Source: a virus (Duplodnaviria > Caudoviricetes). From it: a DNA stretch of 64,000 nucleotides. Shown here piece after piece: positions 4,151 through 39,165 of this stretch; within the stretch, counting starts at the first letter, position 1; each line of letters opens with the position of its first letter. The DNA is taken from positions 1 to 64,000 of the IMG/VR virus record IMGVR_UViG_3300021255_005860; one strand, 5' to 3'. The notes beneath the pieces are model-generated. The model searched no databases, was not told the DNA's origin, and saw only the letters and a program-made list of their open reading frames with translations. Made by a program: the position numbers and the translations under genes.

Positions 4151-7100
4151 TGCAGAGAACCATATTGTCCGTGCACAAATGTATTTGGCATTCCATTTGA
4201 TTGATGAAAGTAGAATATGCCATTACCCGGGCCTTCTCCTCCACCGGAACGATCGCATCCTCCGCATAACAAGTAGATTCCAGTAGGCTCATGTGGCCAA
4301 TGATAATCTTGTTATCACTTTCTTGTTCATGGTACATGTAGAATATTCCTATTCAATTAGCACTGCGATATCAATCTCAGCTAGCACGCTCTTCCCATGC
4401 AGCTCCACCATAAAGGTTATGATACTCCGAAAATGATGCCAGTGTTAGAGAACCTATGCATTCCCACGCTATCGTTACGGCATGATAGTAGCATGAGTAT
4501 ATTCCTCCAGACGTCTTAGAACGGAATATGTCTCCAGTATTTAACTGGTTATCGTCCACAGTACGGATCGCATGATAATCCTGAGTCAGTTCACGAGAAC
4601 CCATATTCACATCTGCTGAGGCGTCATTTACAGTCGAGCCTTGGCGAAAAATGTCATGAGCATAGTCTCCGCTGCCCGAGTTCCAAGCACCACCTATAGC
4701 CCAAAACATTTTTCCTCCGGAGCCGTAATGATGATCCAAAATAATATCAGTACCGAGAACCTATCAATTTTTGCTCAACCTAGCAACGTTATTATCTGCT
4801 ATCCAGGTATAGACATCAAAACTATTAGACATGAATGCTCCGCCTTCAGTTCCAGTATCCCAACCTTTCCCAACAGTATAAGCTTTAACTCCTAATTCAG
4901 CATTGGCAGAATGATGACCTGTCAGGCAGAGAACCTGTATCAATTCTTACTTAGGCGAGAACCTATGAAATCCCAGAAGATTGTATTAGCGTGTTTATAA
5001 GCGTTGAATATACCGCCATTTCCGGAAGGCTTCCAAAACTCAGATGCGGCTCCATTGATACTGCCACCGCCCACCTGCATTTCAGTATCGTTCGCATCTC
5101 TAGTCCAATGATAAGCCATCACAGAGAACCTTCTAAAGGATGAGCCTCAGTTATCCTAACTGGAGTTTGATTAAACATGCCACCACCTCTTGAGGTATTC
5201 CCTGTGGCCCAGTCGTCATACCACAGCCCTCCCAGCATGCGGTGAACTTTATCAGACGCCAGAGCTCCTCCTAAACTATTATTATCCACGCAATGATAAT
5301 ATCAGTGAGAGAACTAATAGTCGGTAAGCTATCAGTGGAGTATATAGTTCTGGCATAAAACACACCCGTGTCAGATGGACCGTTGATATCGTTGCCTCCA
5401 GTGCTAGTTGAAATCCATCTTCTATGACCTATTTCAACCCTGCCAGAACTGTAGACGGTCGTAGAATCAGTTGCTGACTCGGTGATATGATAATCTGGCA
5501 TATACAAAGCAGTTTGAGAACCCCATTTGTGATATGTCGTGAAAAACCATTGCTCCTGTGCAAATATTCCGCTTTGTTCACTATACTCGTCTAAAGCACC
5601 AACATGAACTTCATTTAACGAGGTATGAGTTCCATCACCTGACCAATGATAAACGACAGTCCAGAGAACCTATTTGTACATGATTCATACCAGGCCCTAC
5701 GCCTGTCTGATGAAGAGCTTCAAAGATTCCGGCAGTGTGCCATTGCTCCGCGTAGAATCCCGAGATGAGGATATCTCCGACATTGGGATCACTCTGCAAG
5801 GCATGATAATCGTGGTCATTGTAGAGAACCTGTATGTGCACGAGTTCGCTCCGTTTCGATGGTATTGTTATCGTCAATCCAATTCGTAATTGCGCAAAAC
5901 AAACCCATCGATGCCTCGGTAATAGCACTTGACCATAGACATCCGGCAAAATACATCGATCCACCAGAAGCAGAATTCGTATGATAATTTTTCAGTGCAG
6001 AAGAACCTATATCGACCCCGTCTTTGTATGATCCATTAGAAGAAGCATTCGTAAATCCACCGTTACGCGTTCCATTCTGCCAACTTACTGATGCGGATAC
6101 CGCTGAACCGTACCAATTGAATCTGGAATCATACGCAAAATGATATTCCCAGTTTAGAGAACCTAACGCTATCCACGGGTCTTCGATATCGTATTTGAAA
6201 AATGCACCATTCTTAGATCCTTGACTCCAATATCCTCCAACGCCTTGCTCTCCATTAGAATTAGTATCGAACTTGGAATGGTAGTGCGAGAGAACCCCAG
6301 ATCTCTCCATATCTGTGATCAATGTTATCGCTAAACAGTCCTATTGTTGTTTCAGCTCCAGGACCTCCAACATTGTATCCATGAAACGGATGGTTCACAT
6401 CGATTACATACCAATGATAATTAAAAATGTTATCAGTGTGAGAACCTGTTCCGTCAGTTATCGACCAAACTGGATCAATATTTACATCAAAAATTCCGGT
6501 ATGAGTTCCACCACCTAGAGTACCAGTAAGCAGCATTGTCGTATTTTTGCCTGCCTCATACCAACTTTCTTGTGCATACCTCTCATAAGACCAATGATAA
6601 GATCGATAAGTCAATGCGAGAACCTACATGATTCCAATAATCGGCATAAGGAATATCAGGATTACTTATGAACTCACCACCTGTAGGGTGATCGTACCAA
6701 CTTCCTGCAGTAAGTAAGCAAAATGGTTCGATCAATTGTGACGGCTCTCTTTCATCGGCGTAATGTACGATATGATAATCATCACAGAGAACCTCAATCC
6801 TTAGAGACTCGAGCTGTCCACGCATATAACGTGTCAATCGAAGATCCGTCACTGCGATTGTCCCAGGCAAATCCTCCTGAAAGATTATCGTTAGTAGCTT
6901 CTCCACCGACAGCTCTAGATACCTTTGACGCCTTCCCAAAATGATAATGTAACTGTTCAGTTCAGAGAACCTTAATTTTTGGATAGTCGTGCCACATGAG
7001 CGTCATTAGACGGTACAGAAGTATCGGCATCGTGGAAGATCCCGCTCCAACTAGTAGAAAGCGTAGGGTAATTCACCAAGTATTTTGATGACACACCAAC

Positions 7101-7162
7101 AAGAAATATATACCACGTATTCGGATTACTGGTCGGTGTCATGCCACGAGACTGATGATAAT
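4151..7162 (-). repeat. cassette array 1: 17 CLec-like variable-region cassettes plus one degenerate copy
   Basis: Plus-strand GAGAACC-type ends at about 4155, 4448, 4595, 4755, 4929/4957, 5124, 5309, 5516, 5664, 5824, 6000, 6157, 6290, 6440, 6618, 6787 and 6965, each paired with ATGATA. Minus-strand translations include DYHWPHEPTGIYLLCGGCDRSGGGEGPGNGIFYFHQSNGMPNTFVHGQYGSL and HYHSKFDTNSNGEQGVGGYWSQGSKNGAFFKYDIEDPWIALGSL. Confidence 0.9.
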
Positions 7163-7185
7163 TTTGCTCATAATAAGTATAATTC

Positions 7186-7193
7186 TATATTAC
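7186..7193 (+). promoter_or_regulatory. phiKZ-type early promoter (TATATTAC)
   Basis: Exact motif upstream of AAGGAG and ORF 7229. Confidence 0.7.
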
Positions 7194-7228
7194 TTAGTTG
7201 ATATAACAACTAAGATAAAGGAGAAGAT

Positions 7229-7552
7229 ATGAACTTACTTAAATTTGCACTACTAGAGCTTATAATAGCACATCTTCAAATGTATGAGGAGATGTTAGCT
7301 CGACATCAAGATATGCTAGCTAGAATGGATGCTACTATAACGTATTATAAAAATACTAAACAAATATTTAAAAAGCTAAAACAACATAACGTTCCTAGTA
7401 GTGCTGCTGTGGAATCAGCCATCGAAGCTGCCAAAGTAGCCGTAAGACGAGCTACTGCTGCTAAACAGGATTGTGTTAACGCCTTTATCACTGCTAAAGA
7501 AGAAACCCAAAGAGCAGTACTAGAACTGGTTATCTGTTTCAACTCGTTATAG
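7229..7552 (+). CDS. hypothetical helical early protein
   Basis: 107 aa with its own promoter, RBS and terminator; sits between cassette arrays. Confidence 0.8.
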   Translation: MNLLKFALLELIIAHLQMYEEMLARHQDMLARMDATITYYKNTKQIFKKLKQHNVPSSAAVESAIEAAKVAVRRATAAKQDCVNAFITAKEETQRAVLELVICFNSL

Positions 7553-7566
7553 AAGATGACATTTAA

Positions 7567-7597
7567 CCCTGTCTCATATGACAGGGATTTTATTTTT
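7567..7597 (+). terminator. intrinsic terminator
   Basis: CCCTGTC...GACAGGG stem plus T-tract. Confidence 0.7.
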
Positions 7598-7601
7598 GTT
7601 G

Positions 7602-9550
7602 TCAGTGAGGAGAACCTGTTTCCGGACCTTTATACGCAGCGTATTTAACGCCAATAGAGTCCACTATGAAACATCCAGATCCTAGTTCTGCATAATACCC
7701 GCCAATCAAATACACCGGGCGATCTAGCTCGGTGAGTGATCCACCAGGTTCACCGCCCAGCGAATGATAATTGCACCAAACTTATTATCATTGGCCTGGT
7801 GGTGAAACCACCGTACTATTCGGAGGAGACTGGACACTGGCGAACTCTACAGAGTGGGGAGATCGTCTCCGGTACGGTGGTATATTCATTTATCACAAAT
7901 CTGTAGTCACTGATAACGTCTTCGCGGGTTCTCTACGGACTATCATTGGGGTGGCGATATGGGACCTAACGGTTTTATTTATAACACACCAGGCTGTTTG
8001 GTAGCAGGCGGTGAATACAGCATTGATACTGGGCACGGCATTTATGCTCAAGGTCACACGCAACTATTAACCCCAGATGACTATAGCGGTAAAGGTTCTC
8101 TACGCTGCTCTAGTTATTATCATCTCAGTCAATACGGAACTCAATACATCTGGTATACGATCGGCAATGAAATCGTTGGATTTTCGTCACAGGGATATTC
8201 GACTTGGCCGGTAACTGCTGCTGGTTTACTAGGAAGTCAGAATTGGGCAGATCCGTCGGAACTCAATCCAGATATGGGGCCACATCCTGAGATAAGTTCT
8301 CTGCACTAGTATCTCAGATCTCTAGGTAATACATACAAGAAGTAAAAACTCCAGCGCATCGATGACCAAGACTCTCCAGTAAGAGGAACCCATCCGCTGG
8401 TTATACTCTGTCGGTTCCGCAAACGGATTATTGATAAAAAGTCCGTTTTCTGCTGCATCAATGTACTAGTAACCGCTCGTACACAAGATACGGACTCCAG
8501 ATAGTGCTCCTAGATGATAACTGAAAACATTGTCAGTACTGAGAACTGTACCAGTCTTCAACATGCTCGGCAGTCCAGTCGATGTCGTTACCGAATAAAC
8601 CACCGTATAGGTCGGAGCCTGGAAATCCGCCTACGGTCATAACGACGGTCTGTGTTGGGTTGTGATCATTGTAATGATAGCCTGTGCGAGAGAACCTGCA
8701 TAGGCATTATTAGTAATTGCGGATTTGTGGTAAAGGAATATACCTCCGTACTGAAGACGATCTCCCCACGCCGATGGACTTGATAGCGTCCAGTCTCCTC
8801 CGAACAGTACGGTGGTTTCACCGCTAGGCAAATGATAAACGGTAATCAGTGCAAGAGAACCTATTGATGCATGTTTACCGCCTTCATACGCAGGATAAGG
8901 ATCGTACCAATTGTTGTTATGAAAAATACCAGCCGCAGTACCTGCACCTGCGTAATCGAATCCTGTTAGATACACTTTCCACGATCCGACGTTTGGGTTT
9001 TCCGCATGATAGTCAATTTGAGAACCTGTATTAGATCCGCTTGACGCGGGACTAGTATGAGATCTAGACAACAGTCCACCATCATAATCTCGCCACTCAC
9101 CGCCAATAGTTACACTCGGACCAAAATACGACGCGGTCGAAACATATCCATGATAGTGCCAGTCAGAGAACCTTGACGCGCATCGGTGTGTGGAGCGACA
9201 CTTGGGATCTGTAAATTGGCCACATACTCCCACACTCTACCTAAATGAAATAACCCAGCTCTGTTAGAACCGCTAGATACACCAGTATCAGATGAGTAAC
9301 ATCCCAACGATTGTGGCACTGGGTATCCAGTTGCAAACGATTCGTACTCTCTTGTACCGCAAGGCTGATGATAATATAAACTAGTGCCAGAGAACCGTAG
9401 ACTCCATATCCTGAATCTAAAGGAGTAGGTTCGTTGAAGAACGCTCCACCTGTGCTAGAGGGTTCCCAAGTTCCTACACAACCGACTAGTGATTGAGTGG
9501 AGCGATTGGTACCATCGTGAAACAGATGATGATTCGCAGCACAGAGAACC
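7602..9550. repeat. cassette array 2: 11 cassettes (8 minus, 3 plus) plus stubs
   Basis: Minus ends at about 7610, 8384, 8541, 8690, 8855, 9020, 9166 and 9390 (stub at 9544); three plus-strand cassettes in 7783-8309 end at (G/A)GTTCTC 7927, 8094 and 8295. Confidence 0.9.
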
Positions 9551-9585
9551 TCTTCATATTCGATACTAGCATTTTTAATCTATAG

Positions 9586-9617
9586 GGCACTAGGACCTAT
9601 TAAAAGGTCCTAGTGTC
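9586..9617 (-). terminator. hairpin terminator
   Basis: CACTAGGACC...GGTCCTAGTG palindrome downstream of the 9656..10243 gene. Confidence 0.55.
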
Positions 9618-9655
9618 TTACTTATATCTTTTTAAGATATTAGATTAATGAAACA

Positions 9656-10243
9656 TTACCCTTTAAGCCAGGTAAATGCATAGCCTAAAGAAGCTACATT
9701 AGATGCACCTGTTAAAATATCTACAAATGCGCGTTCATTGGTAAGAGGGTTGATAATAGTCAAAGCTACCGTGGTGTCTTCACATGGACGTATACCAGAT
9801 ATAACAGTTAGAAGAATATAGTTAATACCCTTGGTAACCTGTGAACCTAAGTATACAACAGGTTCTAGATGTGCACCTACATAGCCTTCAAATCTCTTGT
9901 GGAAGGCTGCCTTAATATCCTCTGGAATTTCGGTTTGAACATCGATCTTGATGCCACCCATAGGTGCACCTCCTTCAAGAACACGTTCAATGTTAACCAA
10001 AGTAACATCTTCACCTTTCTCATTGAAGATCATTAAAACAATATTCTTCTGATCACGACCGGTGATAAGTAACTGCTCAGCCAATACGGCGTGGTTAGTA
10101 CCATTTACAAGTTGTGAGCCTAAATAAGCAATAGGTGTATATTCAGCTCCCATAAGGTTTAAGTTACCAAACGCAGAAGCAATTTTCTGAGGCATGCTAC
10201 CAACGGTAACATTGACAGTCCATTCACCTAAATTTGATGCCAT
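9656..10243 (-). CDS. protein with two tandem cystatin-like (QxVxG-type) repeats
   Basis: Internal duplication YTPIAYLGSQLVNGTNHAVL / LEPVVYLGSQVTKGINYILL; AAGGAG RBS. Confidence 0.7.
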   Translation of the reverse strand: MASNLGEWTVNVTVGSMPQKIASAFGNLNLMGAEYTPIAYLGSQLVNGTNHAVLAEQLLITGRDQKNIVLMIFNEKGEDVTLVNIERVLEGGAPMGGIKIDVQTEIPEDIKAAFHKRFEGYVGAHLEPVVYLGSQVTKGINYILLTVISGIRPCEDTTVALTIINPLTNERAFVDILTGASNVASLGYAFTWLKG

Positions 10244-10345
10244 AATTAAATCTCCTTACGACAAGATAATCTCCCCCATAAGTAATATGGGTTTTCCAAA
10301 TTATAGTAGATACATAGAATTAATTAAAATTCTTAAATATAGAAC

Positions 10346-11984
10346 ACTGTGCATAGAACCTATATGTACGTCATCATCTCTGTTTGCGACGTATGTTTCA
10401 TATGTAAACAATCCGGACTGAGGATGACCATCCCACCAACCTCCTGCTGACGCATACGGTCCTTCCCGACGATACTGCGACCACTAATGATAAATGATGG
10501 AAGTAACGCAGAGAACCTGCATAATCGCGGACAGACTCTTCACTACCACTTTCACGCAGCCAGTTGATGATGTTACAAAAGATTCCTCGATGCAATGGAG
10601 CAGCATCGATGCGAAACATACCTCCCACAAACTGTATTCGTCCGTTTGATGAACTAAAGGCATGATAGTTCAGTTTGAGAACCTATATGACTATAACCAA
10701 GTTCATCGTAATAATTGAGCACAATACAGAATATACCGGCACTAGTGGGATTCGGAGTAGGAGTTCCATCCCAGTTCATAGCCGATCTGCCGGTCGTAAC
10801 TACGAGAGTCCTAGTCATATCGTCAGTTATCGTAAAGCTATGATATCCCTCAGTTTGAGAACCTACAGTTCCTCCTTTCAGTCCAGTGTAGATCAGCACT
10901 GCATATCCTCCACTACCTGGACCACCGTTAGTCTCTTCTTGTAACGGACCGATGTTACAACCACCGGAGCAATAGACTCCACTGACATAATTGACCCAAT
11001 GATAATGTCATGCGGAGAACCTCTATCTTTGTGACCGTTATCGTCCGCCGGTGAAGCTCCATGGAAAATACCTGACCAATTAACTGTATCAGTTCTACCC
11101 CACGGCCAAGCATCATTGCCTACCATCCACAATCCGGTGTATTTCGTTCCAGATCCCCAATTATGATAAAGCCACTGCGAGAACCATACGCAGCATTTTC
11201 AAAGTTCATATTAGTCTCCCAGGTAAATATTCCAGCACTACTTCCATTTGCAGTTCTTCCACCAGTGATTAGTGTGTTGTTAGCTGGGACATTGTTGACG
11301 TAATGACAGTTCGAGAACCATTGACGGATGCAGAGAGGTTGGTACGATAGCAACAGTTAAAAAATAATCCTGGGGTAGTAGATCTACGATCAGGATCAGA
11401 CGTACTACTAGACCATTCTGCATTAGCACCTACCCAGCAATCATATTCATTAGTAGAAGTAGTAACAAACCAATGATAACAGTGCATAGAACCTCGAGGC
11501 TTCTGTGCTTCCCAACTCAAACTCACATCTTGAACCCTGTATATGCCAGCATACGTTGTTCCGTCGCCGTAGTGTCCTCCAAATTGCACGAAATGCTGCG
11601 AAATAACACCGGACCCATCGATTTCAGAATAATGATAATAAGTTCACTGTAAGAGAACCTCCTATGGCCGCAGTACTCAAAATCGGCACTCTGCCACGAT
11701 AGAAAATACCCGCATAACCTGATCCTGTATCAGTATTAAAAGCTTCTCCACCTGTGCTCACCATCAACGATACACCAGCAGCCCAGATTACTCCAGAATT
11801 CGCTGCTTCACCGCTACCGTGACGATAGTCATGTCAGAGAACTTATATTCTTCATTCCTGATTCTATCCATCCGTGATAGTTATAGATTCCTGCTGAATT
11901 AGGCATTTCTTTCGAAGTGATCCAACACCCCCCATTTATAGCAGCAGGTCCTCTAGCATCCTCGCTGTGCTGAAAATGATAATA
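10346..11984 (-). repeat. cassette array 3: 10 cassettes
   Basis: Ends at about 10354, 10511, 10677, 10857, 11015, 11179, 11313, 11487, 11653 and 11837; e.g. CHYVNNVPANNTLITGGRTANGSSAGIFTWETNMNFENAAYGSR. Confidence 0.9.
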
Positions 11985-12017
11985 TAACAGCATAAGCTTC
12001 ACCCTAAGGAGATCTAT

Positions 12018-12317
12018 ATGTCATTTATAGTTAAAGTGTCTAACATATTTAGGATATTAACCCATCGTCCTATCCTACATGAAGAAGAAGGATTCTATCC
12101 TTGGACCAGTGAAGATCCTGTAAGAGTTAGAAAAGATGGAGGGTTCGGTATCAACTTAAATAACCCTAGAGTATTTAACCACATCAACCGTAACCTCCAC
12201 TTGATGCAACATATCAATAATGATCTTGCCTCTAGAATAGCTAACCGCACTCTTACTGAGAAAGATAAACAATACTTAGCCAAAGTTCAGGCTAAGATAG
12301 ATAAAAAATTTAAATAA
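12018..12317 (+). CDS. hypothetical protein
   Basis: 99 aa, AAGGAG RBS. Confidence 0.75.
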   Translation: MSFIVKVSNIFRILTHRPILHEEEGFYPWTSEDPVRVRKDGGFGINLNNPRVFNHINRNLHLMQHINNDLASRIANRTLTEKDKQYLAKVQAKIDKKFK

Positions 12318-12490
12318 CTCTAGATCAACGTTCATAAACCTACATCAGTTTGGGTTGTTTTAACATTTGTAATAAAAAAACAAATCGATACATAAGATGA
12401 GTGAGATCAGGGATATTTCAACGCCTCCCTGAAGGGCGAACTGCATCCTGCTATGAGGGTCAGTCTCATCTTAAGATGAATGCATAGATC

Positions 12491-12778
12491 TTAAAGAAGA
12501 CCTAGTTGTTTAGCCTGCTGTGTGGTTAATGCGGTGAACACGTATGCAGGATCTACATGTAGCCCGTAATTTAAGAGAAATTCTGTATAGAAGATCACAT
12601 AACCGGGGTGATTTTGTATCTCTGCATATTTGCGTGGAAGCTGTTGCATGTATAGTTCCTCACGTTGATTAAACAGATGCTCCGATCGTTGCGACACCAA
12701 CGATCTCAGTGAAATAATATACATCTTCAACAAAGATGAATATTTAAGATACATACAGTTGGGATCCTGATGTCTCAC
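12491..12778 (-). CDS. hypothetical protein (start uncertain)
   Basis: 95 aa ORF, no clear RBS. Confidence 0.4.
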   Translation of the reverse strand: MRHQDPNCMYLKYSSLLKMYIISLRSLVSQRSEHLFNQREELYMQQLPRKYAEIQNHPGYVIFYTEFLLNYGLHVDPAYVFTALTTQQAKQLGLL

Positions 12779-12891
12779 TCACAAAAGAGAGAACACTACC
12801 TCTTGGAGGTAGTGTTCTCCCATCGTACTGGTGTTCATCAAATTTCATCTCTATATGACTGATGGGAATTTAACCAACTTTCTGCGAGATA

Positions 12892-13506
12892 ATGATTATG
12901 AACAGCATCGAAAAAGCTATCACCATGAACTCAGTGTCGATAGTATTTGCAACCGCCCTATATGCGACTGTGTACGGGTTGATATCGTTCCGGCTCGTCA
13001 ACCAGAATATTTTGACTCCTCAGATCATCGGGGCGTCTAACATGGCTACCACGATCAGTGGTATTTTAACGTATCAGCTCTTGGAGAAGGAGCAGATACT
13101 CAAATGAGTAGACTCCCATTTAGAGTGCATACTAGTGTGCTTGGGCATAATAACCATGGGCGGGTTAGCTGTCACCCTAGTGTATCCACTCGTTGGGTAC
13201 TTTATCGACGGAATTTGTTCTGTCTCAGTCGGGATCGTTTTCTTCCAGGGAAAGCAATTGTCAATAAACGCACGTATCGTAGATACCAGCGAAAGAAAGT
13301 ATAGGACTCTTCTGCAGGGAAGAGCGGGGAAGGCTAATTTTATTGGAGCGATGCTAAGCGGCATCGCAATGATCATAATCGGCAATGCTGATATTGTCTA
13401 TGTGATCTATGTGGGAATCATTCTAGTGATCCCAGATACTTTGATAGGGCTCTACTCCATTAGAAAGATAAGAGCTCTTCCAGTGAGAGAAGAGGAGATG
13501 AAATAG
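12892..13506 (+). pseudogene. multi-TM membrane protein (half-MFS-like) interrupted by an in-frame TGA
   Basis: ORFs 12892..13107 and 13135..13506 are in the same frame, separated only by TGA at 13105-13107 (EQILK*VDSHLECILVCLGII); both halves are hydrophobic. Confidence 0.6.
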
Positions 13507-13510
13507 AAAA

Positions 13511-13558
13511 CAGGAGCCCATCTTTGGTGGGCTCCTGCGACTTTGTTGTTTTCTTTTT
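13511..13558 (+). terminator. intrinsic terminator
   Basis: CAGGAGCCCA...TGGGCTCCTG stem followed by a T-rich tail. Confidence 0.65.
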
Positions 13559-13577
13559 CACGTAATAGACTAAGATG

Positions 13578-14068
13578 TCAATACAGAGAACCTAAATTAT
13601 CATACTTGACAGTAGGAAGGTTATGACCTTCGTGGAAGATTCCTACGGAATTGATAACTGTCTCTCCACCTGATGAACCCATAACGACTATACCATCAGT
13701 ACCATATAAAAATGCTCCAGGGGCAAAGTCACCACCAAAATGATACTTCCGTTCAGAGAACCTCTTGTTGCAGTACCCACTTCTCGTTGCAGTCCGACAT
13801 CGGTGAAGATTCCTCTAGTAGTAGTAACATTGTCAGCTTCCGATGTTACTCCTGCCCATCCAAACATCAGTGTTGTATAATCTACTTTTTGTACGGAATG
13901 TTAATCCTCAGGCTAAGCAGCGCAGGAGAACCTAGATTGATGCCTTTAGATGTATCTTTGGTGCGGTTAACCTGGAAGATTCCTATACTGCCTGTAGATG
14001 AACTATACGAGTCCCATCCGGCTCCTATCATCACGGTGGTAACATCAGCATTTTGATCAGCATGATAA
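13578..14068 (-). repeat. cassette array 4: 3 cassettes
   Basis: Ends at 13586, 13756 and 13926; e.g. IYHADQNADVTTVMIGAGWDSYSSSTGSIGIFQVNRTKDTSKGINLGSP. Confidence 0.85.
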
Positions 14069-14119
14069 ATACAAAACGTTAAAAATCTCCTTCACGAGGG
14101 TCCCTTAACCCCTCGTGAA

Positions 14120-14510
14120 GGATGCGACCATAAATGTCAGCAAATACACTTGCATTTCAAATCAAGATAGGAGCCACTAGTAACACAGGTATACAATCGA
14201 TGTGTGAGTGGCTGCACACTGGACCTGCCTTATCGATCATCCTGCGATAGTCATTTGACTAACTACCCGTGGTTGCCAGCTACGTAAAGAGCTGACTTGT
14301 TAGTTCCAAACTACTCTAGGTTTCATAGAGGAGAACAATTAGCCGTTACCACGATTGTCTTCACACCCAAGTCCCTTTAGCTATTCACCTATACGTTCTA
14401 TCACAGAAACCTAATAGAACAGGTAGGACTGTTAATAGGCTCACTCATGCTAACCTCGATGAGTCATTAAGTATCACGGCACTGCATACAATAGTACTCA
14501 TACTGTCACA
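14120..14510 (-). ncRNA. candidate structured ncRNA (unclassified)
   Basis: About 390 nt without a tracked ORF, with many short stems (ACTCAT/ATGAGT, GTTCTAT/ATAGAAC, GTCAGCT/AGCTGGC, AGCCACT/AGTGGCT, CTCTA/TAGAG); G-U pairs favour the minus strand. Confidence 0.4.
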
Positions 14511-14554
14511 ATCTACATTTGACAAACATAATCTTCATGGAGTTTTAACTATAT

Positions 14555-14932
14555 ATGGATACTGAGGAATTCTTAAAATTCAGCTCTGAGATCAAATTAA
14601 ATAAAAATGGTTCTATCTCACCTGAGGCTTTATTAAAGTTACAAGAAACTTATAAGGATAAAACCTTAACTTATCTAAGATGGTATTTAGGATACCTATC
14701 ACTACATAACGTCTATGACAGATTAGCTAAATTAAAATCTCCTCAGTTTCAATTGATCCATAACCTACCTATAGAAGATGCTACCACTAAAAGATCGATA
14801 GAATCTTTTTGCGAAACTCTACTTACGATCATTGAAGCTACTAACCGTGAGTTGGAAGGTATAGCCGTTGCAAGTTTATCCGATTGCCCTAAAGCTATCG
14901 AAGAAGGACTATTTTCTCCTGTAGATAAATAA
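14555..14932 (+). CDS. hypothetical protein
   Basis: 125 aa, GGAG RBS. Confidence 0.75.
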   Translation: MDTEEFLKFSSEIKLNKNGSISPEALLKLQETYKDKTLTYLRWYLGYLSLHNVYDRLAKLKSPQFQLIHNLPIEDATTKRSIESFCETLLTIIEATNRELEGIAVASLSDCPKAIEEGLFSPVDK

Positions 14933-14952
14933 TTTCAGAAAAATTACGATCA

Positions 14953-14960
14953 TATATTAC
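14953..14960 (+). promoter_or_regulatory. phiKZ-type early promoter (TATATTAC)
   Basis: Exact motif; no ORF follows before the terminator at about 15495-15531. Confidence 0.65.
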
Positions 14961-14966
14961 TAAAGT

Positions 14967-15531
14967 GGTACCGTAGCTAAGATGCTCCTTTTCCTCATCA
15001 CTGACGATTTAGTTATGGTACCCACTTCGGACGATAGGTATGAGATTACCTCCTTTCTTGATACTTATCGTCCACCTATTCATAATCACAGGGACCTCCG
15101 TACTCGACCATTTCCGTGCTGTTCTATGTAAGAGTGGTTCTAGTATGGGTAAAAATGCAGCAGTCACCTCACCTCTTTGACTGTTATACCATCCCGGTTG
15201 TTAGCAGATATCCGCCTTACGGTATCCGATGAGGGTTATACTCTACGTGAAAATCAGGTATAGCCCGTCTCTAATTCATCACAACTTCATGCATTTTCTG
15301 AGGAACGCTTGCTGTTAAGTATACTCAGTATCTTTTAGTGAAATAAGTTACAATAGAACGTTGCCTCCTTCAACTGTAACTTTACGGTGATAAAATACAT
15401 TGTACTAGACTGCCGTTCAGTTAGTACAAGACCGTGACTACACTTTAAGATAAAAGTTAGCAGCTCTAAATTTGACATTTGTAACTTTGTTTCATCTACA
15501 CTTCTAGACAACTAGAAGTGTAGATCTTTTT
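14967..15531 (+). ncRNA. candidate early ncRNA with multiple anti-Shine-Dalgarno hairpin loops
   Basis: Bounded by a promoter and a terminator, no ORF of 60 aa or more; hairpins 14967-15022, 15029-15073, 15159-15185 and 15345-15382 have CTCCTT / ACCTCCTTT / CCTCACCTC / CCTCCTT loops. Confidence 0.55.
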
Positions 15532-15566
15532 ATTAGAGCATAAACAAATATACCGGACTTTTTACT

Positions 15567-15860
15567 ATGAGAAAATATCTGATGCGCGATTTACAAATAG
15601 TAGATGCCAGATGTAATGGGTTAAGCTTAGAGCAATTGGCTACTAAATTTGTGCTTACTGTACGTACAATACGTAGAATTCTAAAGAAGCACAGAAACGA
15701 ATTGAAAATATTAGATCCACTGAAGTATAGCACAGTAGCAGAGGTGAATAATCACCCATATGTACTGCATGCTATTTTAGAGGGTGAACCGTTGCGCAGT
15801 ATCTCAGAGCGTAGTGGGATCTCATTACAGTTACTACACAAATATCAAAGAGCACTATAG
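15567..15860 (+). CDS. helix-turn-helix DNA-binding protein
   Basis: Two HTH-like segments (GLSLEQLATKFVLTVRTIRRIL; GEPLRSISERSGIS). Confidence 0.65.
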   Translation: MRKYLMRDLQIVDARCNGLSLEQLATKFVLTVRTIRRILKKHRNELKILDPLKYSTVAEVNNHPYVLHAILEGEPLRSISERSGISLQLLHKYQRAL

Positions 15861-15868
15861 GAGAGTAT

Positions 15869-16330
15869 ATGGAGAAAAATATATTAACTAAATTTGTGGA
15901 AAACAAGTTGAAGAAAGCTGACGATAATGAAAAATTAGGTATACAATTAGTTCAGATCATACATGCGATCCTAACTCACATCGACAACAGATCTGGTCAG
16001 GGAATAAAGGTTTCTGTAAACCAAGATCTAGTCAATGTCGAATGTTCTTATCCTAGAGGATCAGGCACAGATAAAATCGAATTTGAATATGATCCTGGTA
16101 CTATCGATCAATTCAAAGGCTTCTTTTATATGCTACCCGATGCCAACTGGATACATGACAAAGGTGGTCATCCTACTATAAGACTCTTTACCTGCTTACA
16201 GTATCTAAGAGATAGCCTGAATAACGATCCCGAAATAGGTAGAGCATTCGCAGCTGCAGGATATCCAGAATTTACAATATTAAATCTTACTGATACCGGA
16301 GTAGTCATATCCTGGAAACAGATCAAATAA
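15869..16330 (+). CDS. hypothetical protein
   Basis: 153 aa, AGGAG RBS, followed by a terminator hairpin. Confidence 0.75.
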   Translation: MEKNILTKFVENKLKKADDNEKLGIQLVQIIHAILTHIDNRSGQGIKVSVNQDLVNVECSYPRGSGTDKIEFEYDPGTIDQFKGFFYMLPDANWIHDKGGHPTIRLFTCLQYLRDSLNNDPEIGRAFAAAGYPEFTILNLTDTGVVISWKQIK

Positions 16331-16413
16331 GAATTCATTCAAGTGTAGTTAAGTAGTCTCTCATAAGAGGGGCTACTTTTTTTATTTTAACGGTGATGAA
16401 GAATCTTCAAATA

Positions 16414-16421
16414 TATATTAC
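16414..16421 (+). promoter_or_regulatory. phiKZ-type early promoter (TATATTAC)
   Basis: Exact motif upstream of ORF 16478. Confidence 0.7.
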
Positions 16422-16477
16422 TTATGTGACTGAGAGGCAATGAATGTCTCTCATCTTATCAATTATTGGAGATAATT

Positions 16478-16849
16478 ATGAAGATTATAAACTTAACACC
16501 ACACATTGTATCCATCGTTTCCCCAGCATGTGCTGAATTCGACCCAAGAACTAAGTCTTATAAACTTGTCGGAGAATTAAAAATCCTGAAGACCTACGAA
16601 CCTGAAGGATCAGCAATACCTCGTTGTAGCATGCGCGAGGAAGAGATAGGCGTTATCGACAATGTACCGGTCGTGAAAAATACATACGGCGAAGTTACCG
16701 ACCTCCCACCAGAGGAGGAGGACACTTACTATATCGTCAGCGCGCTGGTCGCAAATGCCGCAAAGCGCAGCGATCTGCTTATCCCATCCAGAATGGTGAG
16801 AGACACCGAGGGTAAAATCCTAGGGTGCTTAGCATTTGGAAAGGTCTAA
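16478..16849 (+). CDS. conserved hypothetical phage protein (NLTPH family)
   Basis: MKIINLTPH N-terminus, LP....TYYIVS.LVA and RD..G.I.GC motifs; GGAG RBS. Confidence 0.75.
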   Translation: MKIINLTPHIVSIVSPACAEFDPRTKSYKLVGELKILKTYEPEGSAIPRCSMREEEIGVIDNVPVVKNTYGEVTDLPPEEEDTYYIVSALVANAAKRSDLLIPSRMVRDTEGKILGCLAFGKV

Positions 16850-17158
16850 TTAGCCGTCTGACAATCGATAACTGGGCACCTTCGGGGTGTCTGGTTATTT
16901 TTTTGAAAAGTCATCATGATTCAAATTATATATTATTTAAGTGTGATATACGGTTACCGCAGTATCATTCGATGAACTCATATTTTGCTTATAGGACATC
17001 GAGAGGACAGGGGTATGGAGACTGTACTGTTACTCATTTTGATATTGTGTGTAGTATACCCTACAGTACTTGGACTACGTAAGTTATATCATCACATCAA
17101 AGTGATCATTGAAGAAGTAAGATTCTTCATGAAGTTTTAAAAGAAAGGAGAACGTCAA

Positions 17159-17761
17159 ATGGATAAGTCAAAAATTGAGGAATGTGAAGAACTGATTTCG
17201 TTGGCTGAAGAGACTGGACAGCCAGATGAAGTTATCACAAGATTAAAACGTAAGTTATTCGAGTTGAAATTAGATGCCTTTGAGGGCTCTTTTACTAGGC
17301 CACATCTACAAACCAAATTTGATACTGAGGGGGTAATAGAAGCTCCCCAGATGTCTGAACTGGAAATTCTATCTCAGCCTATACCTAAGCAGGAAGAGCC
17401 TGCGGTATTTGCCAAAGAAGTATACAGTAATGGCAATACTAAACTCACCATGCAATCTGAAGGTGTAGCAGGTAATGGATTCTCCCAAAGAGATTTGGAC
17501 ATCATCAATGCCTATCAGAGCGGTACTAAGGTCGCTGAGATAGAAAAGAAATTCAATGTTCCTCATAACAGTTTCTACAACATACTTAAGAAAGCTCGCC
17601 GGTTGGGGATTATCAAAATGTCCCGTATGGCTACTGAGGCTGATATCGATGATGTCATCAGTCTTTATAAGGAAGGGAAATCCGTTGGGGATATAGCTAC
17701 TGAAAAGAATTGGAGGTATACTCGAGTATATGCAATATTGCGACGTAACGGAGTAATATAG
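17159..17761 (+). CDS. HTH-containing protein
   Basis: Two C-terminal HTH-like repeats (YQSGTKVAEIEKKFNV; YKEGKSVGDIATEKNW); variant promoter TATATTAT at 16929. Confidence 0.7.
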   Translation: MDKSKIEECEELISLAEETGQPDEVITRLKRKLFELKLDAFEGSFTRPHLQTKFDTEGVIEAPQMSELEILSQPIPKQEEPAVFAKEVYSNGNTKLTMQSEGVAGNGFSQRDLDIINAYQSGTKVAEIEKKFNVPHNSFYNILKKARRLGIIKMSRMATEADIDDVISLYKEGKSVGDIATEKNWRYTRVYAILRRNGVI

Positions 17762-17806
17762 CAGGAGGAGGACCTATCCTAGGTTACCCTAGGATAGGTT
17801 ACATAT

Positions 17807-18130
17807 ATGCGTCAATTATCTCAAGCCTCTGAGATCTCATCTATAGCAGAAGCAACCCGTCACGGTATCTATGTACTCGTACAAGGTTGCAAGATCTTAG
17901 AGGATATGTATGCTCAAGGAGCCCAGATAGCTGAGATAGCAGAACTACTAGAAGTAAATCCTTCTAGACTCATCTTTGAGACTTCTGATACTGGGATACA
18001 GTTAACTCTTATCTCAGCTCGAGGTACTAAAGTCTGCACTCACTCAGCTCGTGGGTTATTTTTACATTTAGGATCTTTAGAAGGATTAGGTATCTGGATC
18101 AAGATCATCAAACGTTGGCAGCTGACTTAG
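17807..18130 (+). CDS. hypothetical protein
   Basis: 107 aa ORF in a + strand gene run. Confidence 0.6.
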   Translation: MRQLSQASEISSIAEATRHGIYVLVQGCKILEDMYAQGAQIAEIAELLEVNPSRLIFETSDTGIQLTLISARGTKVCTHSARGLFLHLGSLEGLGIWIKIIKRWQLT

Positions 18131-18173
18131 GTTTCTGCGATGATATAGTTCATTGTTATAAGGCCACATTAAA

Positions 18174-18626
18174 ATGCAATTAGTAAAATGGTTACATGAT
18201 CTATTCAAAAGACCCCAGCCTATCTTAGATAGTCAATTATACGTTTGGTTTGACGATAGACATCATCACTATCGTAAGACTCTAGTTATAATTGACCCAT
18301 CCTTGCCAACATCTACGGTAAGATTCACCTATAGTGTTAAAGATAAATCTTATACTCTAGCCATTCCTACTACGGTATATGAAGTCTTTAATGAACGTCA
18401 TGAAGGAGCAGGAATAGCTCTCTTAGTTAAAGTTATCACCTATTGGTATGATCCTGCCATCAATACTAATAGTGATAAAGATACTACTATAGATGTGGAT
18501 TTTAGTAAACGTAACCCCAACTTTACAGATCTATTAAACTACGAAGATGGATCTGACATGGCAAACGTGGTACTAGAATTAAACTCACTAACTCTAGATC
18601 ACGGACACTTCAAAAAATCATACTAA
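18174..18626 (+). CDS. hypothetical protein
   Basis: 150 aa ORF. Confidence 0.7.
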   Translation: MQLVKWLHDLFKRPQPILDSQLYVWFDDRHHHYRKTLVIIDPSLPTSTVRFTYSVKDKSYTLAIPTTVYEVFNERHEGAGIALLVKVITYWYDPAINTNSDKDTTIDVDFSKRNPNFTDLLNYEDGSDMANVVLELNSLTLDHGHFKKSY

Positions 18627-18640
18627 CGGAGAACTAACCT

Positions 18641-19057
18641 ATGGACAAAGATATACGTATTGTAAGAAGCGAGATAACTGCTTTGGTCAAGATGCGTAGA
18701 AGTATTATTAAGCTTATAGCAACTGAGAAAAGAGTAGAACCTTTTGATAAGTTCTTCTCAGAAGTTGTGCAAAGTAGAATACATGTATACGCTGATATGA
18801 TCCTAGACATCGATCATAAGATCGCAGATAAGTCTAAGTATCTTGCTTATCTTGAAGATAGTGTATCCTTTGCCGCTATGAGTCATAGTGAGCAAGTTCA
18901 TATGTTAGTTAACGGTATCAACGATATCTATCGTAATATAGCATCTACTTATACTGACAATGTAGATGTTGATAAAATAGAAGATACCCAAGATAAAGAG
19001 TTAGTAACATACTTTCAAGATATGCTACATGACCGAATAGATGAAGCTATAGACTGA
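18641..19057 (+). CDS. hypothetical protein
   Basis: 138 aa, GGAG RBS. Confidence 0.75.
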   Translation: MDKDIRIVRSEITALVKMRRSIIKLIATEKRVEPFDKFFSEVVQSRIHVYADMILDIDHKIADKSKYLAYLEDSVSFAAMSHSEQVHMLVNGINDIYRNIASTYTDNVDVDKIEDTQDKELVTYFQDMLHDRIDEAID

Positions 19058-19146
19058 TCGTATAAAACTACTGAGGTTACTACAACCTTGGTAGTTATTA
19101 TTTTTTGATTAAGGCATCATCATACCTATACGCAAGGAGATTGTCT

Positions 19147-20043
19147 ATGATCGATTATAAACTATTTGACAGCATTCTAGAATCCTGCGCTCGGGATTCT
19201 GCTGAATTTAAAATAGCTCAAACTTACGAGAGAACAGTTACCAAAGATGACTTCGTGATCTTAACTCCCGAGTATGACGAGTTACCAGGTAAATTTGAAA
19301 AGTATCAGATCGAGTTATACTTAAAGGCACATAGAAATGCTATCGCCCTGAGTGTACCTTTATGTGCACCCTTCTTATCTAGATTACGTAAAACCTCTGA
19401 GGAAGATCCTCACTTTATCGTATCTGACCTGCGTATAGTCCAATATGAGGATGAACTCTACTACCTAGAGCAACTGGGCATCTACCGTTCACGAGATATC
19501 GCTGCATCTGGAGGTGATATCGGACTACCAGTTTTACAACTGATACGTATCTGCAAATATAAAGATGTAGAACGTAAGATTGTAAGACAACTTCAAAACT
19601 ATCTATCCTTCTTACGTAGGATAAGTAGTACACTCGATATGTCATTGTGTAATCACAATGCAGATATCGTCTTTCGTGATACTGGCAGACCTTATTTTAC
19701 TGCGGTACTAAGTTCACTTAACTACTATGTTAAAAATACTGGTGTTTGGTGTATTAATTTAAATTTAGGTACTGATGATATAACTATCTACGATGGAGGT
19801 ATCGACAAAGATAACCTTCATAAGTATTTTGAATATCTCACCGTCTTTGAATACGAAGATAGATTACGTGAGATGTTTAATAGATTAGAAGATCCTGAGA
19901 TGGGTGTATCTATGCTGCAAATAGGTTATAACACTGTGGAAGGATCAGTGTTAGGTAAGTTTAAAGCGATTGTATTAAATTCCATCGATAGTTCTTACCA
20001 CCATTTAAACTTTGGTAAATTCAGAGAAGAGAATGATCAATGA
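19147..20043 (+). CDS. hypothetical protein
   Basis: AAGGAG then ATG at 19147; stop overlaps the HNH start (ATGA). Confidence 0.75.
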   Translation: MIDYKLFDSILESCARDSAEFKIAQTYERTVTKDDFVILTPEYDELPGKFEKYQIELYLKAHRNAIALSVPLCAPFLSRLRKTSEEDPHFIVSDLRIVQYEDELYYLEQLGIYRSRDIAASGGDIGLPVLQLIRICKYKDVERKIVRQLQNYLSFLRRISSTLDMSLCNHNADIVFRDTGRPYFTAVLSSLNYYVKNTGVWCINLNLGTDDITIYDGGIDKDNLHKYFEYLTVFEYEDRLREMFNRLEDPEMGVSMLQIGYNTVEGSVLGKFKAIVLNSIDSSYHHLNFGKFREENDQ

Positions 20044-20555
20044 GCGATAACTTAGGCAGGATGAAACGTATACTAGGAGCTGATGAATACTATCTATCTG
20101 ATCTAGGCAAACTCTATAGAGTACTAGACGGTAAGTTAACTGAGATATATCCAAGTTACCAAAGTGAATATCCTTACTGGCTTATCTCTTATCAAGGTAA
20201 CTTTAGAGCCTACTCTTGTCACCGTCTTATGGCTGAATATTTTCTACCTAACCCTCAAGGATACAAGGTAGTAAATCACAAGGATGGTAACAAACACAAT
20301 TTTAAACTATCTAACCTTGAGTGGTGTTCGCAAGGATACAATGTTACTCATGGCTATAGAACTGGGTTAAATCGTCACACTACCCCTAAAGTGGTAGTTG
20401 ATGCTATCATAACTGAGTTATCTTCTTATAACTTAAATGCTATGAAGAAGTATCCTTATAAACAAATAGCAGCTAAGTATAACGTATCTTATCAAACTGT
20501 ATGGAATATAGCTCATAAAGTAAGACATGCTCAATCTCTAACCTTTACTTGGTAA
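20040..20555 (+). CDS. HNH homing endonuclease with C-terminal HTH
   Basis: HRLMAEYFLPNP...VNHKDGNKHNFKLSNLEW. Confidence 0.9.
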   Translation: MSDNLGRMKRILGADEYYLSDLGKLYRVLDGKLTEIYPSYQSEYPYWLISYQGNFRAYSCHRLMAEYFLPNPQGYKVVNHKDGNKHNFKLSNLEWCSQGYNVTHGYRTGLNRHTTPKVVVDAIITELSSYNLNAMKKYPYKQIAAKYNVSYQTVWNIAHKVRHAQSLTFTW

Positions 20556-23429: not shown

Positions 23430-23437
23430 TATATTAC
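23430..23437 (+). promoter_or_regulatory. phiKZ-type early promoter (TATATTAC)
   Basis: Exact motif upstream of ORF 23489. Confidence 0.7.
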
Positions 23438-23488
23438 TAATGTGAACTAAAGCAACGAATGGTTCGTTGCATACAAAAGGAATGTATC

Positions 23489-36918: not shown

Positions 36919-37210
36919 CACTATTGTTATCGTAGAAGCTTTTTATCCTCTACTTCTACATATTGCTATGTAGGTCGGCGTACGTTTTAGGAATTTTGAA
37001 TAACTCCTTTGCGGCCTCTTGGTAGGATTATATTCTCAATACTTCGAATATTCTAGGATATTCTCAATATGAGGTTCACCTACTACGCTCTGCCCCTGAC
37101 TGAAATATTACTTACAGCCTTCGGTTCACGTTGGGTATTTAACCGTTCGTGCTTAATTCCGCAATTTATCGATGGCCATGTATATTTAACTTATTGATTT
37201 ATATGGAAAA
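36919..37210 (-). mobile_element. group I intron (292 nt, no endonuclease ORF)
   Basis: The 5' exon ends CGAUGGU and pairs with IGS GCCAUCG (plus 37170-37176) with U-G at the splice site; P7-like G(A)GCGUA/UACGCC; terminal G; splicing restores the frame and the DxDGD motif. Confidence 0.88.
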
Positions 37211-39079
37211 ACCATCGTGATCGCCATCATACTTGTCTAGATGCGCAGGATGTACAGACATAGAGTCTTTAACCTTTTCACCTATAATTGGATACTCAGG
37301 ACAAATTACATCCACATCTTCATTGGATTGAAGCGATCTTATTCTTACTTTACGTGCATTAGTAGTTGATACTATATGCAACTTATCAGGTACGATATTC
37401 TCAAGTAACAAAATAGGGTATCTAGTAAATACACCGTGCTTATTATAAAGTCCTCTGAAGGCTGCCATGTAGAACATCTCAGTCCAAGTAAGTGGTCGTA
37501 TTCTTCTAGTATCAAGATAAATAGATTTCAAGAACTTGATCTTATCTTTATCTTTAAGTCTCTTGGATGCGATGTACTGTTGTAGCAATCTTTCAGGCGC
37601 GAGTACCCAATACCCATCTACATTGATGCACATGCTCTTATAAGCTTCAGGAGTGTTAGCTTTAGGATCGAACTCTTTCCACCAAGCATCATCGCCTATC
37701 CTAACTCCTTCTATTTGAGCACCGATAGGTCGTATTGACATAACTGTTAACTCTTCAGGTTCAACTTGATAGCCTAGCATATAAAGAGCAGTAGATCCGA
37801 TGATAGCTACATTATCCTTGATATCATCTAAGAGTTGCAAGGTTTTAAGAGCATGAGTTCCTAGGTTTAACTTATGTGAATAGTATTCTCTGAAGATATT
37901 TACATCTCTAAAGAAGTATACTTCATCATCGTTATCGTACACTAGATATAAGTAGTAGTCTTGTAACTGTCCTTCGTTATTAGTTGCCTTACACGTTACT
38001 GGTTCAAAATGTATTTCAGGGTTACGATAGTTAGTCATGAGATCGTTAATACCCTCAGAGGTAGTAAATCTCATCATCTCTTTATAACTAACCTTAGCGT
38101 AAGTTAAACTGTTAGCTCTCTGCGGATCTATCAAAGGGACATTCTCAGATCCTTGGGCAAAGATCTGTTCAAAGAAGATACTCTTTAACTGATTGACCAT
38201 CAACGGCATAGCAGATTTCATAGCCTGAAATAATGGCACGAATGCCTCATGCGGATTGAACGCATGAGGATCGGACTTAGATGAAGTAACTCTTGTCATA
38301 GGAGCCGCAGTGATAACGTTACGTGATCCATACACAATACCACGAGCTGCAAATCTGTGCTGAGCAAAACCACCTTTACCGTCTACGAGATTACCTATGT
38401 AGTTGTAGATCTCCTGTACCTTCATCTGGATCTGATATTTGATCGTATCGAAGATCGGGTTAGTAGTAGGAGTATCAGGTAGAGCTGATGTAAGTGATAG
38501 TAACGACGTATAGTACTTGTTGATATCCTCTTTGGAGATCTTACCAGATGCCGATGCTTTAACATCTCTAACACCTGCTGGAAGTACTATAAGTTTAGTA
38601 GTTATAAGTACGTTTTTGTACTTATTTAATAATGCTATCTTATCCCTACGAGTTTTACTCTCAGTCTCAGGAAACTTTAATGTTGGCAATATATCTAAGA
38701 ACCACTGATACCCAGTATGACCTTCAGGGTCATCTTGGGTAGTTAATTCTAAATCACCGTTAGCTGCTATCTTAGCGTAAGCTTTACCTGCGATAACTTC
38801 TTTATAAAAACTCTTAAGTGAGATAACCTGCTTATACAGATGAGGAGTTATGATCTTAGTTTTAAGATCTATATAACCTCTACGTATAAGTCTTTCTTTT
38901 GATCCTACCTGACCGAAGATAACCTCAGAGTATAACCCATCTGGATGAAATCTTCTAGTTGACGATTCAAACATCGCCATGTTGGTTACAGGTAGACACC
39001 CTTTTAATTTAATATACTCTTCAGCATCTAAAATCTGGATATTAAACGGAGGGAGTTTTTTGAGTAGAATAGGTTCCAT
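37211..39079 (-). CDS. virion RNAP beta'-like subunit (phiKZ gp180-like), exon 1
   Basis: FHPDGLYSEVIFG, VLPAGVRD, GKGGF, GSRNVIT, TRYP; ends HPAHLDKYDGDHDG. Confidence 0.9.
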
Positions 39080-39165
39080 AAAGGACACTCCTACGACCAT
39101 AACTTATATTGAGTTAAAACCCATCTTATGACTTAAACAAAGGTCAATTGAGGATATTTACATCT

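Follow-up and report, generated by a model that had tools for sequence, protein, structure and literature searches.

The question raised by this locus is what occupies the 634 nt (14933-15566) between two genes of a rumen phage, orf125 on the 5' side (14555-14932, plus strand) and orf97, which encodes an HTH_23/Mor-like protein, on the 3' side (15567-15860, plus strand). Coordinates are counted along the window, that is, the whole 64-kb stretch of DNA analyzed here. The parent IMG/VR virus record, of 153 kb and an estimated 53% completeness, begins with this stretch. No open reading frame (ORF) of at least 60 aa is found in this interval. We consider that the region is probably expressed as a phage RNA gene that belongs to no known family. 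The predicted non-coding RNA, of about 565 nt on the plus strand (14967-15531), is delineated by the absence of ORFs, by its fold, and by contigs from RNA libraries.

The phage encodes split subunits of a multisubunit RNA polymerase, and the beta subunit (37199-39100) matches phrog_2986 at 1e-118. The best relatives of this subunit among isolates belong to jumbo phages of Vibrio, Klebsiella, and Ralstonia, with identities of about 28-32%. On these grounds, the source is taken to be a distant, uncultured phiKZ-like giant phage. The stretch is present in sequencing runs of sheep and bovine gut (rumen) origin, and no tRNA genes were found in the 153-kb record.

In phages of this group, the early start sites of the virion RNA polymerase are preceded, at a distance of about 10 bp, by AT-rich words (PMC7598289, PMC11512511); the early-promoter consensus of 201phi2-1 is TATATTACDWHDGTG, and the phiKZ word is TATATTAC (PMC7058600, table 2). 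An earlier note on this DNA had placed such a word at 14953, and the plus strand does carry there a full match to the extended 201phi2-1 consensus, TATATTAC-TAAA-GTG (14953-14967), in which the -10 word TATATTAC is followed downstream by DWHD-GTG, as in phiKZ-type promoters. The extended word occurs at nine plus-strand sites of the 153-kb record, 30-70 nt upstream of ORF starts; plus-strand ORFs are preceded by it at 826, 7186, 16414, 23430, 75331, 86176, and 147646. Judging from the promoter word, transcription would start at about 14965-14968, which coincides with the first base of the stem of the 5'-terminal hairpin (H1). The 33 nt that include the promoter (14933-14965) show 0% variable columns among strain copies of the locus. 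The leaders behind the early-promoter words at 16414-16465, at 23430-23458, and at 147646-147700 of the record open with similar short hairpins, the loops of which read GAATGG or ATGAATG (gcaacGAATGGttcgttgc, gcagcGAATGGtttgctgc, gagaggcaATGAATGtctctc); such a hairpin may be a 5' leader element that early messages have in common.

Downstream of the promoter, the plus strand folds at -166.5 kcal/mol (z -6.3), and none of 100 dinucleotide shuffles folded as well. The 5'-terminal H1 (14967-15022) has a 15-bp stem and a 26-nt loop with CUCCUUUUCCUC at 14985-14996. It is followed by H2 (15029-15073), a 17-bp hairpin with a 10-nt loop that carries ACCUCCUUUCU at 15048-15058 and is more stable on the plus strand than on the minus strand (-20.1 vs -13.6 kcal/mol). 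MFE and MEA structures both contain a central multi-branch domain (15091-15297), including a long hairpin at 15097-15149 and another at 15228-15266. H3 (15159-15186) consists of 8 bp and an 11-nt loop, with UCACCUCACCUCUUU at 15164-15178 and two CACCU words. H4 (15345-15382) combines an outer stem, AAGUUACA/UGUAACUU, with an inner GUUG/CAAC stem, and its loop is CCUCCUU (15364-15370). A 20-bp interrupted hairpin, H5 (15382-15437), is predicted next. The predicted RNA is closed by an intrinsic terminator (15494-15531), in which a perfect 14-bp stem (15494-15525) with a 4-nt loop is followed by CUUUUU (tail CTTTTTATTA); a G+C-containing hairpin lies here directly before a U-run on the transcribed (plus) strand, and the minus-strand side has no such U-run. 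The hairpins and the plus-strand terminator described by the earlier note are all at the places it gave, with the caveat that H4 is the weakest of the four, its 4-bp inner stem lying beside a 7-nt bulge, and is more stable on the minus strand.

Three RNA libraries, each from a different study (source sample, sheep, and cattle), provided contigs that were compared with 13800-16800; the tally leaves out six further RNA runs with small word shares. The source-sample contigs lie on 14977-15160 and 15175-15332, the sheep contig on 15098-15365, and the cattle contigs on 15110-15275 and 15274-15509. All of these (14977-15509) fall inside the predicted RNA, and such contigs attest presence only, not strand, ends, or level. 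It is important to note that the 3-kb control, 13800-16800, is wholly covered by DNA run X2 only, and that flanking ORFs left uncovered in the RNA runs cannot be read as silence. The position of the RNA contigs on the RNA and not on the neighboring genes is no more than a weak hint.

The 3' end of 16S rRNA reads ...GAUCACCUCCUUA in E. coli and ...GAUCACCUCCUUUCUA in Bacillus. Set beside these two sequences, H2 copies 11 nt of the tail (ACCUCCUUUCU) and H3 copies UCACCUC, and the idea that the loops mimic the 16S 3' end is borne out by four exposed loops. In partition-function folding, the unpaired probability of the words named above is 0.69 for CUCCUUUUCCUC in H1, 0.99 for ACCUCCUUUCU in H2, 1.0 for UCACCUCACCUCUUU in H3, and 0.8 for CCUCCUU in H4. 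Five of the six CCUC words of the RNA have an unpaired probability of at least 0.65 and lie in hairpin loops. As a control, 132 random 566-nt windows of the same genome were examined: 101 held no accessible CCUC word, 26 held one, and 5 held two. Among 465 shuffles that preserved dinucleotides, CCUC occurred in two or more MFE hairpin loops in three cases, and none of the 465 had two loops holding CCUCC or CCUCU. The excess and exposure of tail-like words far above background are statistically solid. Anti-Shine-Dalgarno-like words exposed in loops, by which the functional class of Shine-Dalgarno-targeting C-rich-loop RNAs is recognized, are present in this RNA. The loop theme is not repeated in any other ORF-free gap of the record; the gap at 104302-104689 holds a small gene and a terminator.

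Strain variation was read from five further copies in other assemblies (L003, L004, L006, L007, and L008), which are about 96% identical to the window here. Variable columns make up 2.1% of the RNA, 5.6% of orf125, 7.8% of orf97, and 20% of the 35 nt beyond the terminator. Six of the 12 variable RNA columns fall in the H1 loop and three in the H1-H2 linker; the others are the terminal pair of H3 (15185), an unpaired A (15393), and a weak stem (15460). About 10 of the 12 belong to the H1 loop, the H1-H2 linker, or unpaired positions. Within the central domain (15091-15297), 15185 is the sole position substituted in the variants, and the tail-like loop words are invariant across the strain copies. 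A patch of the H1 loop (14994-15007) is rewritten in L003 and L004 (12 nt: CATCACTGACGA vs TCATTACTCATG), with the remaining RNA about 99% identical; the patch either is free of constraint or serves as a strain-specific recognition segment. In a bovine variant, 7 nt are inserted in the H5 loop, after 15413. This pattern of sequence variation is compatible with a constrained fold; since all copies come from one species and their stems hold almost no variation, they give no covariation evidence.

What could such an RNA do? We tentatively propose that the virion RNA polymerase makes a stable early RNA here, the loops of which may pair with Shine-Dalgarno sites of messenger RNAs; this is the best supported of the readings considered, although we hold it at somewhat less than even odds. 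The injected virion RNA polymerase would initiate at the consensus early promoter (14953-14967), the intrinsic terminator (15494-15531) would end the transcript, and strong hairpins would close both ends. The four loops (CUCCUUUUCCUC, ACCUCCUUUCU, UCACCUCACCUCUUU, and CCUCCUU) would be displayed as single-stranded copies of the 16S 3' tail and would base-pair with Shine-Dalgarno sequences of the AAAGGAGG type. The RNA would in this way compete with 30S subunits, leading to lower translation initiation on several messages together. We infer in this scheme the early timing, the start site, the pairing with ribosome-binding sites, and the effect of that pairing.

The pairing of C-rich loops with ribosome-binding sites is an established mechanism, known in Gram-positive bacteria from S. 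aureus RNAIII, IsrR, RsaE/RoxS, Listeria LhrC, and M. tuberculosis 6C (PMC6486639, PMC4132741). Like these RNAs, the phage RNA is built of multiple hairpins, presents several unpaired C/U-rich loop words that complement ribosome-binding sites, and is closed at its 3' end by a terminator hairpin; RNAIII (514 nt, RF00503) is also close to it in size. Unlike the RNAIII class, it has no sequence or structure homology to any Rfam model, and it is encoded by a phage behind an early promoter of the virion polymerase. Its loops carry the full CCUCC/ACCUCCUUUCU tail word, whereas those of the RNAIII class carry UCCC. The comparison with RNAIII drawn in the earlier note holds as an analogy of design, but not as homology, because no Rfam model, RNAIII included, matches. 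The loop design is unusual and takes an RNAIII-like principle to the full 16S tail word in a giant phage; the function that it suggests is read by analogy.

Phage genes, including those behind early promoters, carry AGGAG, GGAGA, or AAGGA at -14 to -9, so the host uses Shine-Dalgarno initiation and the loops do complement real sites. For the same reason, a general blocker would also hit the phage's own genes, because their Shine-Dalgarno words are the same. No extended complementarity to the loops was found at phage translation starts in the whole record; the best loop complements, of 10-12 nt, lie inside ORFs at 116079(-), 105184(-), and 1204(+), and 11-mer identities and complementarities with the rest of the record are no more frequent than expected by chance. 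The shared Shine-Dalgarno sites, the missing extended complementarity at starts, and a downstream operon without a visible promoter weigh against simple host shut-off. The proposal of a multivalent sRNA that binds ribosome-binding sites is upheld as far as the non-coding nature, promoter, strand, terminator, tail-like loops, and RNA contigs are concerned; the binding itself, and host translation shut-off or phage gene timing as its outcome, are conjectural.

In phiKZ-like giant phages, the known RNAs are short and no function has been assigned to them, whereas the rumen RNA, at about 565 nt, offers a functional clue in its loops. Should ribosome-binding sites, or factors that recognize the tail, be the targets of the loops, a giant phage would be taking over or protecting host translation at the RNA level. 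Such a route, if true, would complement the protein factors already described for phiKZ.

Relatives of the RNA were sought by several routes. Scanning the window with Rfam (4227 models, among them RNAIII, RsaE, CsrB, group I/II introns, riboswitches, T-box, 6S, tmRNA, GOLLD, OLE, and HEARO), a comparison that had been proposed earlier, gave no family match at gathering score; within 14700-15800 there were chance-level matches only (E 0.035-10), all far below gathering. Neither blastn of 14900-15600 against 50,697 phage records nor tblastn of both flanking proteins against the phage records gave any match. Peptide-pattern scans of IMG/VR for orf97, orf125, and the RNA polymerase beta subunit were empty, as was that of JGI metagenomes for orf97, and an exact 19-mer of the RNA was not found in IMG/VR. 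When compared with 5.8 billion proteins, orf125 and orf97 matched in the same species only, at 97% identity; by sequence, the flanking proteins are species-restricted. Relatives of orf127 were found at 37-60% identity, and the three contigs that carry them (L012-L014) hold no similar RNA by nhmmer or blastn; two of the three carry TATATTAC words. No homologue of the RNA outside this phage species was found in these searches. Two other kinds of RNA were considered and rejected: a type III antitoxin or pseudo-ToxI RNA, as no direct-repeat family has a copy inside 14933-15566, and a DGR or retron template RNA, as the 153-kb record (an estimated 53% of the genome) has no RVT_1 match.

ROOL (RF03087) is a large ornate RNA that was first described from rumen metagenomes and phages. 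It is similar to the present RNA in length (its model has 574 positions) and in its rumen and phage setting, yet its covariance model had no match at E up to 10 in the 153-kb record (control genomes were matchless too, which makes this result weak taken by itself), and cmscan of the window for ROOL was negative. Large phage-associated RNAs such as ROOL and GOLLD are not known to have a defined function. The present RNA, which is likewise large, built of many domains, well conserved, and of no known family, could be a structured RNA with another role (scaffold, protein sponge, or ribozyme-like), in which pyrimidine-rich loops serve tertiary or protein contacts and the likeness to 16S rRNA is incidental. 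In favor of such contacts, GAUGAGG at 15228-15234 could pair with the CCUCAUC word of the H1 loop, although L003 has lost this complementarity. An incidental likeness also sits poorly with a match that reaches 11 nt in H2 and with an excess and exposure of tail-like words well beyond the genomic background, and we consider this explanation unlikely, if still the best placed of the alternatives.

A second alternative concerns the relation of the RNA to the genes behind it. The RNA may be a prematurely terminated leader and not a free-standing gene, since no promoter is visible between the terminator and orf97: no early-promoter word lies within 15531-15567, and the next terminator and the next early promoter are at 16351-16378 and 16414, respectively. 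In this case, the RNA would be a long cis-acting 5' leader of the orf97-orf153 operon, with 15494-15531 as an attenuator and the stable RNA as a by-product; read-through of the terminator would be set by the fold or by a factor. The word CUACACUU occurs twice, at 15439-15446 and in the 5' arm of the terminator, which permits alternative pairing. There is also a precedent: in 201phi2-1, premature termination within 5' leaders gives rise to 8 of the 11 small RNAs (PMC11512511). The small RNAs mapped by ONT-cappable-seq in this phage group, namely sRNA001-011 of 201phi2-1 and the phiKZ sRNA upstream of gp182, share with the rumen RNA the early-promoter word and the leader-derived layout, in which a (here predicted) start and a nearby terminator lie upstream of a gene; but they are shorter than 250 nt, as against about 565 nt here, and no anti-Shine-Dalgarno loops have been reported for them (PMC11512511). 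The rumen RNA has no sequence similarity to any record of the phage collection. Several points argue against the leader: riboswitch, T-box, and other leader families have no match, an attenuator needs far less than 565 nt with four tail-like loops, the terminator stem is a perfect 14 bp, and the RNA-library contigs lie on the leader itself. In addition, orf97 may have a promoter of its own, because middle and late promoter motifs are ill-defined in such phages. We regard a leader as a rather unlikely account of the whole RNA. As to orf97 itself, its ATG at 15567 has no recognizable Shine-Dalgarno word in 15532-15566, and the gene caller of one assembly put the start at 15582.

A third alternative keeps the likeness to 16S rRNA and changes the partner. 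The RNA could be a decoy of the 16S tail for a protein that recognizes this tail, with an abortive-infection endoribonuclease that clips the anti-Shine-Dalgarno sequence as the prime candidate. The 11 nt of tail in H2 (ACCUCCUUUCU) and the two CACCU words in the open 11-nt loop of H3 would suit such a target, and toxins that cut this region of 16S rRNA are known: MazF-mt11 cuts C/ACCU, and RelE1 and other MazF toxins also cleave the anti-Shine-Dalgarno region. A phage RNA mimic that neutralizes an endoribonuclease toxin is known as well, namely the pseudo-ToxI of phage PhiTE (PMC3475682), which is comparable to the rumen RNA as regards this reading only. ToxI and pseudo-ToxI consist of tandem 36-nt repeats and the rumen RNA has no direct repeats; pseudo-ToxI mimics an antitoxin, whereas the rumen RNA would mimic the 16S tail. 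The phage's own reliance on Shine-Dalgarno sites conflicts with a general blocker but not with a decoy. However, the case rests solely on resemblance: no such toxin is known for the host, nothing in the window indicates a partner protein, and the flanks of the loops differ, so that varied pairing sites fit at least as well as one protein site. We judge a decoy for a tail-recognizing protein to be quite unlikely, and its specific anti-defense form, in which early copies of the 16S tail would soak up endoribonucleases that clip the anti-Shine-Dalgarno off host ribosomes, to be improbable. If true, the phage would be shielding the translation machinery on which it relies by means of an RNA, a strategy that would be new.

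The pairing of loops with Shine-Dalgarno sites, like these alternatives, presupposes an RNA transcribed from the plus strand. This orientation is strongly favored by the promoter word, the plus-only terminator, the fold, and the hairpin energies with their G.U pairs, taken together. The strand comparison of folds gave z -6.3 on the plus strand vs -2.1 on the minus strand. The G-U bias toward the plus strand that it had described was also recovered: in seven of the nine hairpins the plus strand gives the lower folding energy, and the 17 G.U pairs in total favor this strand because they would become A.C mismatches on the other. A minus-strand transcript would display loops such as AAGGAGG and GAGGAAAAGGAG and could serve as a GGA sponge of the CsrB kind or as a ribosome-binding-site decoy, and three of the four loops do read GGA on the minus strand; H4 is more stable there, and the RNA-library contigs carry no strand. 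Against this stand the promoter word and terminator U-run found on the plus strand only, the difference in folds, the mismatches just mentioned, and the plus orientation of every gene from 14555 to 20555, and we hold a minus-strand RNA to be very improbable. CsrB/RsmY sponges resemble the present RNA in having many hairpins with one short loop word, but here GGA occurs on the minus strand only, and a sponge of this type was rejected as the strand evidence favors plus.

A coding role for the region, in the form of one or several small proteins, can be set aside as extremely improbable. Frames of 49, 46, and 38 aa (plus strand) and of 58 and 52 aa (minus strand) do exist, the first of each set being the longest on its strand, and all fall short of 60 aa, in keeping with the original observation. 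However, no frame matches Pfam or has a properly spaced ribosome-binding site, and the start codons lie within stems. In L003 and L004, the 49-aa frame has ATA in place of its ATG, and the gene callers of four independent assemblies annotate nothing in the region.

Several features of the surrounding genome deserve mention. At the end of orf125, 36 nt (14910-14945) match otherwise unrelated contigs from one DNA run and one sheep RNA run, with identical loose ends on both sides of the match; judged by sequence, this stretch is a short element common to another organism or phage. Upstream, 4151-14068 holds arrays of units of about 150 bp with plus-strand boundaries ATGATA...CAGAGAACC, and no repeats common to the RNA region and these adjacent cassette arrays were found. 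The arrays differ among strains (12889-13290 has no counterpart in L003, L004, and L007), and the assemblies of other samples break at them, contigs L003 and L004 beginning at about 11929. Downstream, the helix-turn-helix protein orf200 (17159-17761) has 21% variable columns among strains vs 0-8% in its neighbors, which suggests a recombinant or fast-evolving early gene, and the early gene block also includes, at 20040-20555, an HNH_3 endonuclease with a C-terminal helix-turn-helix (Pfam 1e-7).

Farther along the record, 89629-91202 is poor in ORFs and strongly structured, its z being about -6 to -7 on either strand; it contains AAT repeats and several hairpins that resemble terminators. This segment may be a replication origin region, since it adjoins a helicase gene and lies 3 kb from a DNA polymerase gene (about 94550-96853 of the record). 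The gap directly in front of that polymerase gene measures just 124 nt. Finally, a second ORF-free gap precedes orf125 (14057-14554). A cattle RNA-library contig lies on 14314-14477 with a depth of 24, above that of the main RNA; at 14088-14122, a 13-bp hairpin is followed by a U-run on the minus strand, and the fold of the gap reaches a z of only -1.3 (minus) and -2.0 (plus). Another RNA, read from the minus strand and ending immediately ahead of the cassette arrays, may be encoded in the gap.
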